Source of the DNA: Candidatus Methylomirabilota bacterium
GTDB taxonomy: Bacteria > Methylomirabilota > Methylomirabilia > Rokubacteriales > CSP1-6
DNA length: 64,000 nt
Reading direction: 5' to 3'
NCBI GenBank assembly: GCA_046726415.1
Contig: JBKPAK010000189.1
Coordinates: forward strand, 1,154-65,153
A program made the position numbers and the translations under genes. The notes below the pieces were generated by a model, which did no database searches, was not told the origin of the DNA, and saw only the letters and a program-made list of their open reading frames with translations. Below are positions 755 to 51,996 of the stretch, in pieces; position 1 is the stretch's first letter; every line of letters starts with the position of its first letter.

Positions 755-1474
755 TCACTTGCCCTGCAACATCTCGAATCCTCGACTCTTCGGCTGCTGA
801 GCTTTCAGTGAGTCGACATGGACCCGAATCTCCTCGAGGTCCTTGGCCGGCGGCGCCCCTTCAATCGCAATCGGCTGTTTGCGCGTCCCGGAAGCCGCGG
901 TCGGGCTTGTGCCCGCGGACGATGCAGGTGCGGACGGCGCCGAGGGGGCTGAGGGGCTAGGTGATAATGACGGGGCCGGGGCAACGGGGCCTGAAGGAGC
1001 CGGGGCATACGAGACAGTGCCTCCGCGAGCCTGCGGCTGAGCGCCAGCCACCCCTCCGGGAGCTTGCGGCTGAGCGCTCGCCACCCCTTCCGGAGGTTGC
1101 GGCTGAGCGCCGGCCACCCCTCCCGGAGGTTGCGGCTGAGCGCTGGCGGTGACGCCTCCCGAAGCTTGCGCGGGCGCGTCGGGAGCAGAGGCAGAAATGC
1201 GGACGACGACCACTCCCGAAGTCCCGGTCAGCTCGACTCGATCCTCGACGATTTTCGTGACGCGGTAGGGGCCGACCTGGTCCCCTTGGCGAACGCGGAC
1301 GAGCTTGTTCTGCGTGTGAGTCGGTTCACCGATCCACGCCCAGGCCTCGCCCTCGGCCCTGATGACAACACCCATGACGGTAAACCGCGGTTGCTCCTGA
1401 GCGGCGGCCAATCCGCTGACGAGCCAGGCGAAGGCCGCGACCATCAGCACGAGCACGAGCTTTTTGGAGTTCAC
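755..1474 (-). CDS. Secreted protein with a PilP/GspC-like N-terminal domain and a Pro/Ala/Gln-rich repeat region.
   Basis: Signal peptide MNSKKLVLVLMVAAFAWLVSGLAAA. The N-domain (FTVMGVVIRAEGEAWAWIG...VRQGDQVGPYRVTKIVEDRVELTG) resembles the pilot domain of PilP/GspC. It is followed by QPQPPGGVAGA repeats and a PSAPSAPS tract. Confidence 0.55.
   Translation of the reverse strand: MNSKKLVLVLMVAAFAWLVSGLAAAQEQPRFTVMGVVIRAEGEAWAWIGEPTHTQNKLVRVRQGDQVGPYRVTKIVEDRVELTGTSGVVVVRISASAPDAPAQASGGVTASAQPQPPGGVAGAQPQPPEGVASAQPQAPGGVAGAQPQARGGTVSYAPAPSGPVAPAPSLSPSPSAPSAPSAPASSAGTSPTAASGTRKQPIAIEGAPPAKDLEEIRVHVDSLKAQQPKSRGFEMLQGK
1030..1150. repeat. About 3.5 tandem copies of a 33-bp unit inside CDS 755..1474; they encode the QPQPPGGVAGA repeats.
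   Basis: The unit (c/g)ttgcggctgagcgc(c/t)(a/c/g)gccacccct(c/t)ccggag is repeated head-to-tail. The unit is 33 bp, so the repeat is in frame. Confidence 0.7.
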
Positions 1475-44376: not shown

Positions 44377-45291
44377 TTGATGGCTGCCACCGTCACCCTC
44401 AGGATGCGTCCCCGACCGGCGAGCGGGCCCGCCGTACGTCGCTATCCGCTCCCGGTGAGAAGTCTCCTCCTGTCGTCGTGCGTCCATGCGATCGTTCTCG
44501 GCGCCATCATTGGAGTCGCCCTGCTGTGGCGTCCCGAGCCGACGCGGACCTACTTCGTGAATCTCGCGCCCTCGGTTCCGGCTCTCGGGAGTCCGGTGGG
44601 AAAGCCGACGACACCGACGACCGCGCCACCGGCGCCTCGGGTCGAGGAGCCTCCGAAGCCGACGAAGTCCGCCGCGCCCGAATTGCCGGTCCGGGACGTC
44701 GCGCCAAAGCCGATCCGCCCCGCGGCCCCCCCGGATCTGCCGGCCCGCCCGGCCACGCCTCCGGCGCTGCCCGCGCGCACCGCCACCAAGCTCCCGGAGA
44801 TGCCCACGCGCGAGGTTCCGCGCGACACTCCAAAATCCGGTCAGAAGGAATTGCCTTCCCTGTCGACGCCAGCCCCACCGACCTCGACGGCGTCGAAGCC
44901 CAGTCCCGCGCCGGCCGCGAGCGAAGCGGCTCCTGCCCCTCCCCCAGCTGCGCTCGGCCGACCCACCGGCGCGCCTCAGGGGGCCGGAACGATGGCGAGC
45001 GTAGAGGGAGACTTTCCTTTCCAATGGTACCTGACCGCCGTCCAGCGCAAGGTCTACGAGCAGTGGACTCAACCGCTGTCGAGCGCGCAGGGACAGCGGG
45101 CGATCATCGTATTCGAGATCGCGCGCAACGGCGAGGTCAGCCGCGCCCGCGTCGAGAAGACCTCCGGGGACGCCACCTACGATCTGGCGGCGCTTCGCGC
45201 CGTGGCCAATGCCAATCCTCTCCCACCGCTCCCTGCGGAATTCAAGGGCACCATGATCCGAGTGCATTTTGGGTTCGAATACAAAGGCTGA
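44377..45291 (+). CDS. tolA: TolA-like protein (Pro-rich spacer plus TonB/TolA C-terminal domain).
   Basis: N-terminal TM helix, a long Pro/Ala/Thr-rich region, and a C-terminal FPFQWYLTAVQRKVYEQW...RVHF TonB_C-like fold. Lies between tolR and tolB. Confidence 0.65.
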   Translation: MMAATVTLRMRPRPASGPAVRRYPLPVRSLLLSSCVHAIVLGAIIGVALLWRPEPTRTYFVNLAPSVPALGSPVGKPTTPTTAPPAPRVEEPPKPTKSAAPELPVRDVAPKPIRPAAPPDLPARPATPPALPARTATKLPEMPTREVPRDTPKSGQKELPSLSTPAPPTSTASKPSPAPAASEAAPAPPPAALGRPTGAPQGAGTMASVEGDFPFQWYLTAVQRKVYEQWTQPLSSAQGQRAIIVFEIARNGEVSRARVEKTSGDATYDLAALRAVANANPLPPLPAEFKGTMIRVHFGFEYKG

Positions 45292-49575: not shown

Positions 49576-50202
49576 CTACGGCCGGGGAAGCCTTCTCGGA
49601 GTGGCCGTGCCGGCTGAAAAGATAATGCGGATGCCCTCCTCCACGCCCATCCCGGTATGGATGACGTCGTCGTGCGGCACGACCACCACCTCACCCAGGT
49701 ACAAATTGTTGGTAGGCACGAAGACCGTTACCATCTCCTGCTTGCCGGTCGGCGTGTCCACCAAAACCTCGCTCGTCACGAAGCCGAAGGCATAGGTACC
49801 CTCGCGAGGGTGCTGGACGAGTACCACGGCCTTGAAGGCACTGCGACGCTCGGGCGAGAAGGAATCGATCAGCATCTTCACCGAGGGATACAGCATTCGG
49901 TAGATGGGAAGGTTGAGGAGCACCCGCTCGCCCCAGCCGATCACCCGCCGCCCCACCACGTTGCGGGCGATGATCCCCATGACCAGGACGATGCCGACCG
50001 CGGTAAGGAAGCCGAGGCCGGGGGGGGGATGCCCGAACACTCGTGCGTAGACCGGCGCGAAGAAGTCGTCGATCTTGCTCCAGAAGATCCAGAGGAGCCA
50101 GGCGGTGGCGATAGCGGGCACGGTCACAAAGAACCCGGCCACCAAGCGAACCTTGAGCCAGGTCTTCAACCACGTCACCATCGCTAGGTAGCATGTCATC
50201 AC
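49576..50202 (-). CDS. DUF502-family membrane protein.
   Basis: Two N-terminal TM helices and NLPIYRMLYPSVKMLIDSF...VLVQHPREGTYAFGFVT, a DUF502 pattern. Confidence 0.6.
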   Translation of the reverse strand: MMTCYLAMVTWLKTWLKVRLVAGFFVTVPAIATAWLLWIFWSKIDDFFAPVYARVFGHPPPGLGFLTAVGIVLVMGIIARNVVGRRVIGWGERVLLNLPIYRMLYPSVKMLIDSFSPERRSAFKAVVLVQHPREGTYAFGFVTSEVLVDTPTGKQEMVTVFVPTNNLYLGEVVVVPHDDVIHTGMGVEEGIRIIFSAGTATPRRLPRP

Positions 50203-50936
50203 AGGGATCCAGGGCCGTCAAGGAACGCCCCTGTGCGCTCGTCACCGGCGGTGCCGTGCGCGTGGGACGCGCCATCGCCATGGCCCTCGCGCGGGAAGGC
50301 ATGGACGTCGCCATCGCATACTACGGCTCCAGGCAGGAGGCCCTCTGCACTCGGCGAGACCTCGAAGCCCTCGGGGCCCGCGCGGTGGCTATTCGGGCCG
50401 ACCTCACCTCGCCGATGGCAGCGGGCCGCCTTGTGCGTGAGGCCGCGGCGGCGCTCGGGGGCCTCGATGTCCTTGTCAACAACGCAGCGGTCTTCGCGCG
50501 CACGCCGTTCCGCTCCGTCACGCCGGCGACCTATGACCGCTTCCTCGATCTCAATCTGCGCGGCGCGTTCTTCTGTGCGCAAGCCGCCGCGGCCTTGATG
50601 GCTCGGCGCGGTGGCCATATCGTGAACATAGGCGACATCGCCTACCGGAAGGCCTGGCCCGGCTACATCCCGTATACGCTATCCAAGGCGGGCGTGGTCG
50701 CGCTGACGCGGAGCCTGGCGGTGGCGCTGCGTCCGAGGCGCATCGCGGTGAACTGCGTGGCGCCAGGAGCGGTACTACGGCCGGCCGGCTTTGCCCGCGC
50801 GCGCTGGAGGACCCTAACCCGCGGCCACGAGGGCTCGGCCGAGGACGTGGCGAAAGCGGTGGTCTTCTTCGCGACCTGTCCACCCTATATCACCGGCCAG
50901 ATTCTCGGTGTGGACGGCGGCGAAGGCGCCTGTTGA
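50193..50936 (+). CDS. SDR-family short-chain dehydrogenase/reductase.
   Basis: ALVTGGAVRVGRAIA (TGxxxGxG), NNAA, and the YTLSK catalytic YxxxK. Confidence 0.85.
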   Translation: MSSQGSRAVKERPCALVTGGAVRVGRAIAMALAREGMDVAIAYYGSRQEALCTRRDLEALGARAVAIRADLTSPMAAGRLVREAAAALGGLDVLVNNAAVFARTPFRSVTPATYDRFLDLNLRGAFFCAQAAAALMARRGGHIVNIGDIAYRKAWPGYIPYTLSKAGVVALTRSLAVALRPRRIAVNCVAPGAVLRPAGFARARWRTLTRGHEGSAEDVAKAVVFFATCPPYITGQILGVDGGEGAC

Positions 50937-50944
50937 CGAGCCGC

Positions 50945-51215
50945 CCTGCCGCCGCCTACGAGCAGTCGACGGCCCAGACCTGAAGCCCCCACGAGCAGTG
51001 GGCGACACCTGCTGCCGCCCACGAGCAGTTGACTAGCCGGACCTGAAGCCGCCCACGAGCAGTTGACTAGCCGGACCTGAAGCCGCCCACGAGCAGTTGA
51101 CTAGCCGGACCTGAAGCCGCCCACGCAGTTGACAAGCCGGACCTGAAGCCGCCCACGCAGTCGACAAGCCGAACCTGAAGCCGCCGACGAGCAGTCGACG
51201 AGGCGGGGAGGAGCG
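50945..51215. repeat. Non-coding tandem array of about 8 copies of a 32-34-bp unit. Three central copies are identical: gccgcccacgagcagttgactagccggacctgaa.
   Basis: Head-to-tail copies were read directly. Outer copies are degenerate (cagtcgac/cagtgggc variants, and a 2-nt deletion in two copies). There are no spacers, so it is not CRISPR-like. The unit length is not a multiple of 3. Confidence 0.85.
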
Positions 51216-51285
51216 AACGCTCCCCCCCGCCGTCGCCAAATTGGCGGTGGGGGGTGTCGGGGGGAGCGGCGCTCGCTCCCCCGAC
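51202..51285. terminator. Two GC-rich stem-loops between convergent genes (SDR on the plus strand, MBL on the minus strand); likely bidirectional terminators.
   Basis: GGCGGGGAGGAGCG-aa-CGCTCCCCCCCGCC (14-bp stem, 1 mismatch) and GTCGGGGGGAGCG-gcg-CTCGCTCCCCCGAC. The second lies 3 nt from the MBL stop. No U-tract, as is common at high GC. Confidence 0.4.
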
Positions 51286-51288
51286 GTC

Positions 51289-51996
51289 TCACGGAAGGAC
51301 GATGCGGCCCCCACCCATGGCACGCAGGAATTCGCCGAGCGACGTGAAGCGCATGAAGGCGTTGTCGCGCTTCTCGTCTCCGAGTGTCGACGAGGCGCCG
51401 CCATAGTTGTGCCCGGGAAGGAGGACGGTTTCGTTGGGCAGCGCTCCCAGCCGCTGGGTCAGCGAGTAGTACATCTCGGTGGGATCGCTTCCGGGAAGGT
51501 CCGTGCGCCCACACGAGCCGATGAAGAGGGTATCCCCCGATACAAGACGGCCGTCCACGAGAAAGCACTGCGAGCCCGGAGTGTGCCCCGGCGTGTGCAA
51601 GAACGTCAGGGTGAGACGTCCCACCGCAAGGGTGTCGTGATGATCGACCTTCACGAGATCCGACCCGAAGCCCTTCAAGAATTCGCGCTCGGCCTTGTGT
51701 ACGTAGACCTTGAGCGCGACGCGCTCGAGCAGCTCGTCAACGCCTGGGATACGTCCGGGCATCCCCCAGGAGGCGAGGCTGCCACCCACGTGATCCTGAT
51801 GCGTGTGGGTCACGAGCGCGCCTTTAAGGATCATCCCGTCGCGCGCCGCGGTGTCCACGATGGTGTCGATCTCCCAGGCTGGATCGACCACGACGCATTC
51901 CCGCGCGAGGGGGTCGCCGATGAGGTACACGAAGTTCTGCATCGGCCCCAGCTCCATCTGCTTCAGGTAGATATCCGGCTCGACCGGCGCGCTCAT
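51289..51996 (-). CDS. MBL-fold metallo-hydrolase (glyoxalase-II-like).
   Basis: THTHQDHVGG (HxHxDH), HTPGHTPG and GDTLF motifs. Start at M121 of track ORF 51289..52356. Confidence 0.8.
   Translation of the reverse strand: MSAPVEPDIYLKQMELGPMQNFVYLIGDPLARECVVVDPAWEIDTIVDTAARDGMILKGALVTHTHQDHVGGSLASWGMPGRIPGVDELLERVALKVYVHKAEREFLKGFGSDLVKVDHHDTLAVGRLTLTFLHTPGHTPGSQCFLVDGRLVSGDTLFIGSCGRTDLPGSDPTEMYYSLTQRLGALPNETVLLPGHNYGGASSTLGDEKRDNAFMRFTSLGEFLRAMGGGRIVLP

Follow-up and report, generated by a model that had tools for sequence, protein, structure and literature searches.

A tandem repeat array between convergent SDR and MBL-fold hydrolase genes of an uncultured soil Rokubacteria population is probably a young, hypervariable minisatellite

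Introduction

What kind of element is a run of direct repeats of about 34 bp which lies between two convergent genes in an uncultured soil bacterium of the Rokubacteria (Methylomirabilota), and does it have any role there? The repeats were noticed in a 64,000-nucleotide stretch of DNA, which in its full length is called the window here. An initial annotation, made from the letters of this stretch, took them to be neither CRISPR nor protein-coding, and left a choice between an iteron or regulator-binding array, a phase-variable site, a decayed REP-like element and a recently expanding or contracting minisatellite. The array is probably a young, lineage-specific and hypervariable minisatellite (VNTR) in a non-coding convergent gap of the chromosome of an uncultured soil Rokubacteria/Methylomirabilota population, and nothing that was seen points to regulation or mobility.

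The array and its gene neighbourhood

Tandem Repeats Finder (TRF) reported a single array at 50932-51206 with a period of 34, 8.4 copies, 84% matches and a score of 326, by far the top-scoring repeat of the 64-kb window. Its units of 34 or 32 bp are all direct and arranged head to tail, with a homogeneous centre and decayed edges (Table 1). Read in register, it is composed of three copies that are exact, two of 32 bp and about three that are decayed or incomplete. The description as eight 34-bp repeats given in the initial annotation is therefore roughly correct; its three perfect central copies with degenerate edges were recovered by the in-register reading. The exact 34-mer GCCGCCCACGAGCAGTTGACTAGCCGGACCTGAA is found three times in the window and in none of 100 dinucleotide-preserving shuffles. 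The spacing from start to start equals the unit length (34, 34, 32, 32), and the units abut without spacers, which bears out the exclusion of CRISPR.

Table 1. Features of the array, the gap and the two flanking genes, in window coordinates
Feature	Position	Strand	Basis and remarks
SDR-family oxidoreductase gene, 247 aa	50193-50936	+	ORF list; Pfam adh_short_C2, E 5e-48
Vestigial partial repeat copy, GTTGACGAGCCGCCCTGCC, cf. GTTGACTAGCCGGACCTGAA	50932-50950		TRF array start, direct reading; overlaps SDR stop codon
Degenerate left-edge unit, 34 nt	50951-50984		In-register reading
Degenerate left-edge unit, 29 nt	50985-51013		In-register reading
Three perfect 34-nt units, type c, GCCGCCCACGAGCAGTTGACTAGCCGGACCTGAA	51014-51115		In-register reading; exact-match count
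32-nt unit, type d, AG deleted	51116-51147		In-register reading, allele comparison
32-nt unit, type e, AG deleted	51148-51179		In-register reading, allele comparison
Truncated last unit, 20 nt, GCCGCCGACGAGCAGTCGAC	51180-51199		Fused to 5' arm of hairpin 1
Hairpin 1, G-run/C-run stem-loop	51196-51235, core 51202-51231		Inverted-repeat search, folding
Small inverted repeat GCCAAATTGGC	51235-51245, between the hairpins		Direct reading; paired in - strand fold
Hairpin 2	51251-51290, core 51256-51287		Folding; alignment with L170, L090 and L010
MBL-fold hydrolase gene, 235 aa	51289-51996	-	ORF list; Pfam Lactamase_B, E 6e-17; gene calls on related contigs

Within the unit, GCCGCC, ACG, GAC and CCTGAA are invariant across all unit types. 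The TTGAC(T/A) and GTCGAC cores that had been pointed out before are indeed present, TTGACT or TTGACA in four units of the window and GTCGAC in the remaining ones, the 32-nt units d and e carrying TTGACA and GTCGAC, respectively. When all unit types are considered the core varies between TTGACT, TTGACA, GTCGAC and GGGCGAC, and the 2-bp indel alters the internal spacing such that the core is offset against the rest of the unit in about half of the units.

The ORF list and Pfam agree with the annotated convergent SDR and MBL-hydrolase genes on the two sides, the array being situated between their stop codons and 3' of both. The SDR gene, named 'pteridine reductase' by JGI, has homologues which are named SDR in Rokubacteria/Methylomirabilota, and its stop codon TGA (50934-50936) falls within the vestigial leftmost repeat copy. 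The neighbours are described as housekeeping (OmpA, a BamD-like protein, a hydrolase, DUF502, SDR, MBL, DUF4340 and an ABC auxiliary protein), with no replication, partition or regulator gene among them and no cas gene in the fetched neighbourhood. A replication landmark at the array was also considered and rejected, as the GC skew has no switch near 51 kb.

The two strong hairpins that had been noted behind the array were reproduced by folding, with energies of -24 to -38 kcal/mol. For hairpin 1 (folded as 51196-51240) the + strand yielded -30.4 kcal/mol (z -5.1) and the - strand -38.3 kcal/mol (z -7.4); for hairpin 2 (51250-51292), which adjoins the MBL stop codon, the values were -29.1 kcal/mol (z -3.3) and -24.0 kcal/mol (z -3.4), respectively. 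Hairpin 1 is lineage-specific, is 82% similar to hairpin 2 and is probably the first stem-loop met by SDR transcripts. Both are G+C-rich stem-loops, which is one hallmark of an intrinsic (Rho-independent) terminator. Direct reading found no T run behind either stem on either strand, and a terminator scan returned no site in the SDR-MBL gap; they may nevertheless terminate transcripts or make them more stable in this organism of 67% G+C.

Variation among strains

Copy-number variation among strains, which the initial annotation had advised to look for, was found when contigs from other metagenomes carrying an SDR gene that differs by 0-8 of 744 nt from that of the window were compared, all of them short-read assemblies in which copy numbers of identical units could be mis-assembled. 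On the contigs with complete gaps the SDR gene differs by 0-2 nt, the value of 8 being reached when truncated contigs are included. Common to all alleles, and marking the locus as orthologous, are the SDR and MBL genes, the two left-edge units (constant between 50951 and 51013 except for single-base substitutions) and a right flank of 109 nt, in which the inverted repeat GCCAAATTGGC is identical throughout. What changes is the number and order of three to six internal units. The complete gaps measure 286 nt (units c-o-h, in L005, L009 and L171 from three different samples), 318 nt (c'-d'-o-h, L181), 320 nt (c-o-h-h, L006), 350 nt (c-c-d-d-e, L003), 352 nt (c-c-c-d-e, the window itself) and 382 nt (l-m-d-d-d-e, L002), and two more allele types are seen on truncated contigs (c-d-g-g-h... 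in L001 and s-s-s... in L173). Type c, present three times in the window, thus occurs once or twice or as variants in the other strains, and type d in one to three copies in the other alleles.

These differences in unit number and order exist between strains with identical or near-identical flanking genes. The SDR gene of the window does not differ by a single nucleotide from that of L001, nor do those of L003, L005, L006 and L009 differ from each other, and their arrays are nevertheless different. Gain and loss of whole units by slippage predicts adjacent identical units and differences by one unit, and both were found in the alleles (ccc, dd, ddd, hh, gg and ss; c-o-h versus c-o-h-h). Out of the options of the initial annotation, the recently expanding or contracting minisatellite is the one which these strain differences show directly.

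As identical tandem copies are a classic source of collapse and expansion in assembly, and many contigs break in or beside the array, the length differences might be artefacts of short-read assembly around an array which in truth is monomorphic. This is extremely unlikely. The alleles differ in unit types and in their order, beyond mere counts of identical units, and the 286-nt allele c-o-h came out of three independent sample assemblies (L005, L009 and L171). The two array lineages, ending in d-e and in o-h, are each paired with their own variant of the right-hand hairpin flank, so that the groups of alleles track distinct substitutions in unique sequence, which argues for inheritance rather than assembly noise. 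Moreover, the longest run of identical units comprises 102 nt, which is below the usual length of Illumina reads, about 150 nt as a general figure and not one specific to these samples. That many contigs break off within the array or the hairpins (L001, L004, L007, L008, L172-L174 and L176-L184) is just what variation of a repeat among members of a population should produce.

Relatives without the array and the search for further copies

The nearest relatives outside the population lack the array. Three relatives have the same convergent gene pair with a single hairpin and no array, namely L170 with an SDR protein 87% identical and a gap of 127 nt, and L010 and L090, both with an SDR protein 84% identical, with gaps of 71 and 99 nt, respectively. 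In most other Rokubacteria the SDR-MBL gap measures 7-100 nt. When the array-free gaps were aligned to the flanks of the window the sole convincing alignment was the hairpin beside the MBL stop, and the single G-run/C-run hairpin of these relatives is the positional counterpart of hairpin 2. The string 'CGAACGAGCAGGGGAGG' in L090 is a suggestive candidate for an ancestral seed, too short to count.

A DNA-binding protein might instead recognise the units, much as happens in iterons, plasmid centromeres or operator arrays; it would bind the TTGAC/GTCGAC core of each unit, and its occupancy would be tuned by the number of copies. In favour of this, all units have a short near-palindromic core (AGTTGACT or AGTCGAC) in constant phase, a number of positions do not vary between unit types, and the array is lost in no allele. 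However, the core is not conserved between units and is displaced by the 2-bp indel in about half of them, the number of units varies freely among strains with identical flanking genes, and relatives with SDR proteins 84-87% identical have the same gene pair without an array. The neighbours are housekeeping genes, blastn against plasmid and phage collections gave no similarity to the unit, and as the array is located 3' of both genes there is no promoter for it to control. A role as binding sites is therefore quite unlikely, and the iteron or regulator-binding option of the initial annotation was abandoned on the grounds of the variable core, the shifted spacing and the lack of a replication or partition gene nearby.

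Unrelated repeats were encountered in the same gap of other Rokubacteria. A hairpin-containing unit of 53 bp stands in tandem in L042, L110 and L032, and an element GGAGCGCCACGGC...GCGCTCC is found in L026, L064, L102 and L037, where it occurs in either orientation, while L015, L059 and L131 have it in tandem. A match to the core of the 53-bp repeat with three mismatches at 45131-45158 of the window was taken as chance, since it lies inside a long + strand ORF, most likely a gene. The SDR-MBL convergent gap might be a place where unrelated arrays arise or land repeatedly across Rokubacteria, and the array might then be non-neutral, serving as a spacer of variable length or a multi-site 3' UTR which buffers convergent transcription or recruits a protein, so that SDR or MBL expression would be tuned among strains by the number of copies. 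The probability of this reading is small. All strain alleles retain at least three internal units and none is without the array; this retention, together with the invariant positions, fits either youth or constraint.

These dispersed hairpin-containing repeats in the SDR-MBL gap of other Rokubacteria also give some weight to the idea that a dispersed REP/BIME-like or MITE-like family has formed a local cluster here, inserted by a mobile process, and of the host genome itself it is the 64 kb of the window that were searched. No second copy of the unit exists in the window, neither as an exact unit nor with up to three mismatches nor by blastn-short with 7-nt words. A repeat of period 33 at 1020-1170 is unrelated, being a coding repeat of 11 amino acids within a - strand ORF. 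Among the fetched loci outside this population (about 160 of 184) the unit was not found either, and exact searches with degenerate patterns of 23-26 nt were empty in the genome_contigs, viral_contigs and metagenome_contigs collections. The metagenome result is uninformative on the source community, as the source samples are evidently absent from that collection: the pattern occurs in L001, from JGI sample 3300082286, and yet the scan was empty. The species is likewise absent from the genome collection, the best hit there having an SDR protein 84% identical.

The initial annotation had held that the array would be unremarkable if its unit belonged to a common dispersed REP family, and this turned out negative in the 64-kb window, in the about 160 related loci and in the sequence collections. 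The unit is furthermore devoid of an inverted repeat or stem-loop, the defining feature of REP elements, which speaks against the decayed REP-like option as well. Both edges of the array grade into flanking sequence, on the left into the region of the SDR stop codon and on the right into an arm of hairpin 1, and this favours a local origin. Membership in a dispersed family is accordingly rather improbable.

Coding, RNA and regulatory signals

The view that the array does not encode protein was corroborated. Unit c contains stop codons in all three frames of the + strand, and a translation of the - strand found no homologue among 5.8 billion predicted proteins. As an indirect test for further arrays, over which spurious ORFs might have been predicted, this search is weak, since those called here on L001, L172 and L173 were also not returned.

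A promoter scan detected no promoter-like site in the gap. TTGACA/TTGACT as a -35 promoter element was rejected, since a -10 partner is absent and the scan was negative. The phase-variable site, too, fell away, as the array is placed 3' of both convergent genes and no promoter-like site was predicted.

The array might act as RNA, either as a repeat-bearing 3' UTR or small RNA to which a protein or RNA attaches in several copies (a sponge or architectural RNA) or as a modulator of SDR mRNA stability. Intergenic tandem repeats of Borgs have been proposed as regulatory RNAs (PMC9879509), and the array, preceding the first strong stem-loop, is probably co-transcribed with SDR. Folding points the other way. 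A single unit yields -2.8 kcal/mol on the + strand (z +1.4) and -6.7 on the - strand (z +0.95), weaker than shuffles, and on neither strand do units or triple units reach a better fold than shuffled sequence (z +0.5 to +1.4). For the whole gap z is -1.6 on the + and -2.4 on the - strand, the stable stems recurring in both being the two hairpins. Rfam 15 gave no match at gathering score in the window, and when E values up to 1 were allowed for the gap the best was 0.26, with all candidates at least 40 bits under the family cut-off and mainly over the hairpins, which is chance level. Besides the missing promoter-like site, the sequence and number of the units are not conserved even within the species. 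A function as RNA is for these reasons improbable.

Origin and significance

For the minisatellite that remains as the preferred reading, the seed seems to have been local sequence at the gene's stop codon and terminator. It probably originated by duplication of sequence between the SDR stop codon and an ancestral terminator-like hairpin, and whole units would since have been gained, lost and homogenised by replication slippage or by unequal sister-strand recombination of neighbouring copies. Given its position behind the SDR stop codon and ahead of the first strong stem-loop, the array is probably transcribed passively within the SDR 3' UTR. From the absent signals it can be argued that it probably has no sequence-specific function, and its effects would be practical ones, namely length polymorphism at the strain level and broken short-read assemblies.

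It may be called young since relatives whose flanking SDR protein is 84-87% identical lack it, and strains with identical flanking genes are already polymorphic for it. With 286-382 bp between conserved gene ends, the locus is a strain marker of PCR size for sub-populations of an uncultured soil Rokubacteria species; the array also accounts for the breaks at this point in short-read assemblies of the population, and it provides a clean example, outside the pathogens, of a minisatellite caught young. Its value is mainly practical; no new mechanism is opened and no long-standing question resolved.

Comparison with known repeat systems

With CRISPR arrays the locus shares direct repeats of about 30-36 bp, but the units abut without spacers, the repeats are not conserved and the fetched neighbourhood is free of cas genes. 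Arrays of iterons or of plasmid centromeres, of which the 43-bp sopC repeats of plasmid F are an example, have rep or par genes as neighbours, are carried by plasmids or phages and show sequence conservation. They resemble the present array in that units of tens of bp follow each other in one orientation, each with a short inverted-repeat core, and differ from it in view of its chromosomal housekeeping context, its variable core, its free copy-number variation and its lack of plasmid or phage similarity.

The REP/BIME (palindromic unit) clusters of enterobacteria are, like the array, made of short extragenic repeats; they often stand at gene 3' ends beside terminators and contribute strongly to the small segments in which strains differ (PMC2884548, PMC3184786). 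REP units are imperfect palindromes which form stem-loops, number hundreds per genome and alternate in orientation in BIMEs (PMC2884548, PMC3184786), whereas the unit described here has no palindrome and is repeated in one orientation, with no second locus in the 64-kb window. The intergenic repeats of the Borg extrachromosomal elements are, like this array, recently formed and of independent origin (PMC9879509). Borg repeats are perfect, A-rich and pervasive on an archaeal extrachromosomal element (PMC9879509); the array here is single, G+C-rich, partly decayed and located on a bacterial chromosome.

No publication that links 'Rokubacteria' with 'tandem repeat' came up in a literature search. 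The closest counterparts are the bacterial minisatellites or VNTR loci used in MLVA typing, such as the MIRU-VNTR loci of Mycobacterium tuberculosis (PMC3635867) and the minisatellites of Xanthomonas (PMC4045669). MIRUs are 40-100 bp long and form a family at many loci per genome, often between genes of one operon (PMC3635867), in contrast to the unit of 32/34 bp, seen at a single locus in the 64-kb window and the collections, between convergent genes, and unrelated to MIRUs in sequence. In common with MLVA loci in general, the array has mostly intergenic, head-to-tail units of tens of bp which are hard for short reads, a copy number that changes among close strains much faster than point substitutions arise, and a probable passive transcription with neighbouring genes. 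It has what defines a minisatellite or VNTR, a tandem unit in the range of about 10-100 bp repeated beyond chance, a count which varies between strains and conserved flanks, as seen in short-read assemblies. The kind of element is already known, and it is this locus that is new.

The Array and Its Flanking Genes

One outstanding tandem array was detected in the 64-kb window by Tandem Repeats Finder, which gave the next non-overlapping array a score of 179 (see table). The eight 34-bp repeats described in the initial annotation were confirmed as an array, while exact 34-mers are limited to three units; these lie inside degenerate or partial outer copies, in line with the central identity and degenerate edges originally noted. 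The perfect 34-mer occurs three times, compared with no occurrence in 100 dinucleotide-preserving shuffles. The array does lie between convergent genes for an SDR oxidoreductase and an MBL-fold hydrolase, a pair conserved in Rokubacteria/Methylomirabilota relatives, and is set among housekeeping genes of the chromosome (OmpA, BamD-like protein, alpha/beta hydrolase, DUF502, DUF4340, ABC-transporter auxiliary protein). The window has a G+C content of 67%, and relatives of the SDR protein are annotated as Candidatus Rokubacteria, Rokuibacteriota or Methylomirabilota.

Features of the window and the basis of their assignment
Feature	Position	Strand	Description	Basis
Second-strongest tandem repeat	1020–1170		period 33, 4.5 copies, score 179	
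ORF containing it	755–1474	−	239 aa, N-terminal hydrophobic segment	
SDR oxidoreductase gene	50193–50936	+	convergent with MBL gene	
SDR C-terminus	50925–50936		...GGEGAC*	
Tandem array	50932–51206		period 34, 8.4 copies, 84% matches, score 326	Tandem Repeats Finder
Vestigial copy	50932–50950		GTTGACGAGCCGCCCTGCC; overlaps SDR stop codon	reading in register
Degenerate unit	50951–50984		34 nt	reading in register
Degenerate unit	50985–51013		29 nt	reading in register
Three perfect units	51014–51115		34 nt, each GCCGCCCACGAGCAGTTGACTAGCCGGACCTGAA	reading in register
Two units lacking an AG dinucleotide	51116–51147, 51148–51179		32 nt	reading in register
Truncated unit	51180–51199		20 nt, runs straight into hairpin	reading in register
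Hairpin 1, core	51202–51231		−30.4 (+) and −38.3 (−) kcal/mol; z −5.1 and −7.4	folding
Small inverted repeat	51235–51245		GCCAAATTGGC	
Hairpin 2, core	51256–51287		−29.1 (+) and −24.0 (−) kcal/mol; z −3.3 and −3.4	folding
MBL-fold hydrolase gene	51289–51996	−	convergent with SDR gene	

The SDR protein is one residue longer than several relatives, which end in ...GGExx*, and the TTGAC motif in the vestigial first copy provides its stop codon; the end of the gene may thus have been slightly altered when the repeats formed. The second-strongest repeat encodes an 11-residue Gly/Ala/Pro/Gln-rich motif (GGVAGAQPQPP-like); this coding repeat bears no relation to the 34-bp array.

The two strong hairpins reported to follow the array were borne out by folding (z −3.3 to −7.4); they are G-run/C-run stem-loops and the stable stems recurring in minimum free energy and centroid structures of the whole gap between the two stop codons. 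Neither carries a U-tract. The inverted repeat between them forms the gap's sole A/T-rich spot and does not vary in any strain allele. Among loci L178–L183 several contigs end within, or garble, the hairpins beside the MBL stop (L182 reads GGGGGGTGGGGGGGGAGGCGCCCCCCCCCCCCCCC), so these homopolymer-rich hairpins too degrade short-read assembly at the locus.

Variation among Near-Identical Strains

Strain contigs were collected by exact-protein look-ups with the SDR protein, its cluster members (at most 5 of 247 residues different) and the identical MBL protein, which returned contigs from more than 15 other soil metagenome samples. All share this gap together with its two left-edge units and its 109-nt right flank; the interior varies, although the 744-nt SDR genes differ from that of the window by only 0–8 nt.

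Interior units of the array in the window and in strain contigs (c, perfect 34-nt unit; d and e, 32-nt units; h, o, l and m, units of other strains)
Gap (nt)	Units	Source
286	c-o-h	L005, L009, L171 (three samples)
318	c'-d'-o-h	L181
320	c-o-h-h	L006
350	c-c-d-d-e	L003
352	c-c-c-d-e	window
382	l-m-d-d-d-e	L002

A gap of 318 nt, measured between the two gene calls, was likewise seen on a 74.8-kb contig, and incomplete arrays were read on truncated contigs (c-d-g-g-h... in L001 and s-s-s... in L173). The window and L001 have different arrays with no difference in 744 nt of the SDR gene, and L003, L005, L006 and L009 share one identical SDR gene with three different arrays; the pace of change in the array thus far exceeds that of point substitution. 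Stretches in which one unit type repeats (ccc, dd, ddd, hh, gg, ss), alleles differing by a single unit (c-o-h versus c-o-h-h) and the homogeneous centre with decayed edges are what unit-wise slippage or unequal exchange should produce. The suggestion of a recently expanding or contracting minisatellite is thereby upheld, as both number and order of units differ among these strains.

Many contigs terminate inside the array or the hairpins, which fits a repeat polymorphic within samples. That the length differences are an assembly artefact is hardly credible, because the unique right flank exists in two sequence forms that track the two array lineages (...d-e and ...o-h), which argues for inheritance.

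Origin of the Array and Search for Other Copies

In the nearest relatives outside the population the gene pair is kept with gaps of 127 nt (L170, 87% identical SDR protein) and of 71 and 99 nt (L010 and L090, 84%). Each has one G-run/C-run hairpin beside the MBL stop codon, and the 34-bp unit is absent from these three gaps. In an alignment of the window gap from which the array was taken out, hairpin 2 matches the single hairpin of the relatives and so is the ancestral stem-loop, the array and hairpin 1 having been added in this lineage. At both edges the array merges into unique sequence, the left one overlapping the SDR stop codon, and the right edge has GACGAGGCG in common with the 5' arm of hairpin 1. 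We infer an origin of the array in local sequence rather than an insertion by a mobile element.

No further copy with up to three mismatches was found in the window, and blastn of the window with 7-nt words gave nothing past chance 10–14-mers. Among 184 fetched loci unit patterns matched only contigs of this population, with no match in the approximately 160 loci outside it. Exact 23–26-nt patterns were absent from a genome collection in which the species is not represented, a metagenome collection without the source samples and a viral collection, and plasmids and phages gave no blastn match to the unit. As far as can be tested, with 64 kb of the organism's own genome covered, the array is not part of a dispersed family, a question which the initial annotation had proposed to check by BLASTN. 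The unit has no palindrome, which disqualifies it as a REP/BIME and speaks against the decayed REP-like element among the origins first offered; membership in a dispersed REP-like family is considered very unlikely. The data show a hypervariable, lineage-specific array, seen at a single locus.

The same gap holds other repeats in other Rokubacteria. A hairpin-containing unit of about 53 bp, GTGCGAGTTGAGCCGCGTCCGCGGCGAGACGAGCGGTGAAATGATCGAAAATC, which differs from the 34-bp unit, occurs there in two to three tandem copies (L042 2401–2564, L110 1613–1729, L032 about 2570–2760; SDR proteins 70–73% identical), and a related 54-bp pair lies at another site (L029 1283–1391); this looks like a dispersed, array-forming family. 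In L026, L064, L102 and L037 the gap contains a REP-like element in which G runs come after GGAGCGCCACGGCTTYGCCGGGGYGCTCC; it lies between TCTAG/CTAGA ends, and its orientation in L026 and L064 is opposite to that in L102 and L037, which suggests that the segment can invert or that the insertions took place independently. Elsewhere the element forms tandem arrays of 48–93 bp (L015 1560–1815, L059 3218–3353, L131 3376–3520) and is absent from the window. In some Rokubacteria an extra small ORF-sized insert takes the place of repeats, with gaps of 298 nt (L034, L103, L104) and about 711–731 nt (L017–L019, L096, L099), making the SDR-MBL gap a frequent site of gene-content change.

Possible Function

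Stop codons interrupt unit c in each of the three plus-strand frames, and the open minus-strand frames of the array have no homologue, in agreement with its description as not protein-coding. On neither strand do single units or the perfect triple unit fold better than shuffles (z +0.5 to +1.4), and Rfam yielded no family at gathering score, weak matches being at chance level; a functional repeat RNA is accordingly considered very unlikely. The putative binding core varies by unit (TTGACT, TTGACA, GTCGAC, GGGCGAC) and is displaced by a 2-bp indel in about half of the units, so a protein-binding array is highly improbable; the iteron or regulator-binding array once considered failed also on genomic context, which likewise speaks against a centromere array. 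No sigma-70-like promoter was predicted in the gap, and none is expected since the genes converge; this speaks against phase variation by promoter spacing, and with it against the phase-variable copy-number site. There is no sign of sequence-specific function in the array.

Taken as a whole, the data are probably best explained by an array which would itself be neutral and in which units are gained and lost through replication slippage or unequal sister-strand recombination; VNTRs of bacteria are usually attributed to these mechanisms (discussed in PMC9879509 and PMC2884548). With the SDR stop codon on one side and the first stem-loop on the other, the array would be passively transcribed as SDR 3' UTR, and the hairpins may end or stabilise the convergent transcripts, though neither has a U-tract. 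A combined reading, with this convergent gap as a recurrent hotspot of repeats in Rokubacteria and a spacer or 3' UTR role for the array, is considered very unlikely.

Comparison with Known Systems

The absence of spacers rules out CRISPR, as already stated initially. The array has what defines a bacterial minisatellite or VNTR, namely tandem units of tens of bp, copy-number polymorphism among strains and conserved unique flanks. It is a real feature and a new member of this class, in an uncultured phylum that has been little studied; a full-text literature search for 'Rokubacteria' together with 'tandem repeat' gave no match. The array can serve as a strain marker and explains assembly breaks, and will not surprise a specialist. 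It works like MIRU-VNTR loci (PMC3635867); what sets it apart from a MIRU is its different unit, the single locus at which it was seen, and neighbours that converge instead of forming an operon. A close parallel are the intergenic tandem repeats of Borg elements, which likewise formed recently, are missing from close relatives, vary within populations, have partial repeats at their flanks, sometimes begin where an ORF ends and have a unit length that is no multiple of three (PMC9879509). Compared with these, the present array is G+C-rich, partly decayed, solitary and located on a bacterial chromosome.
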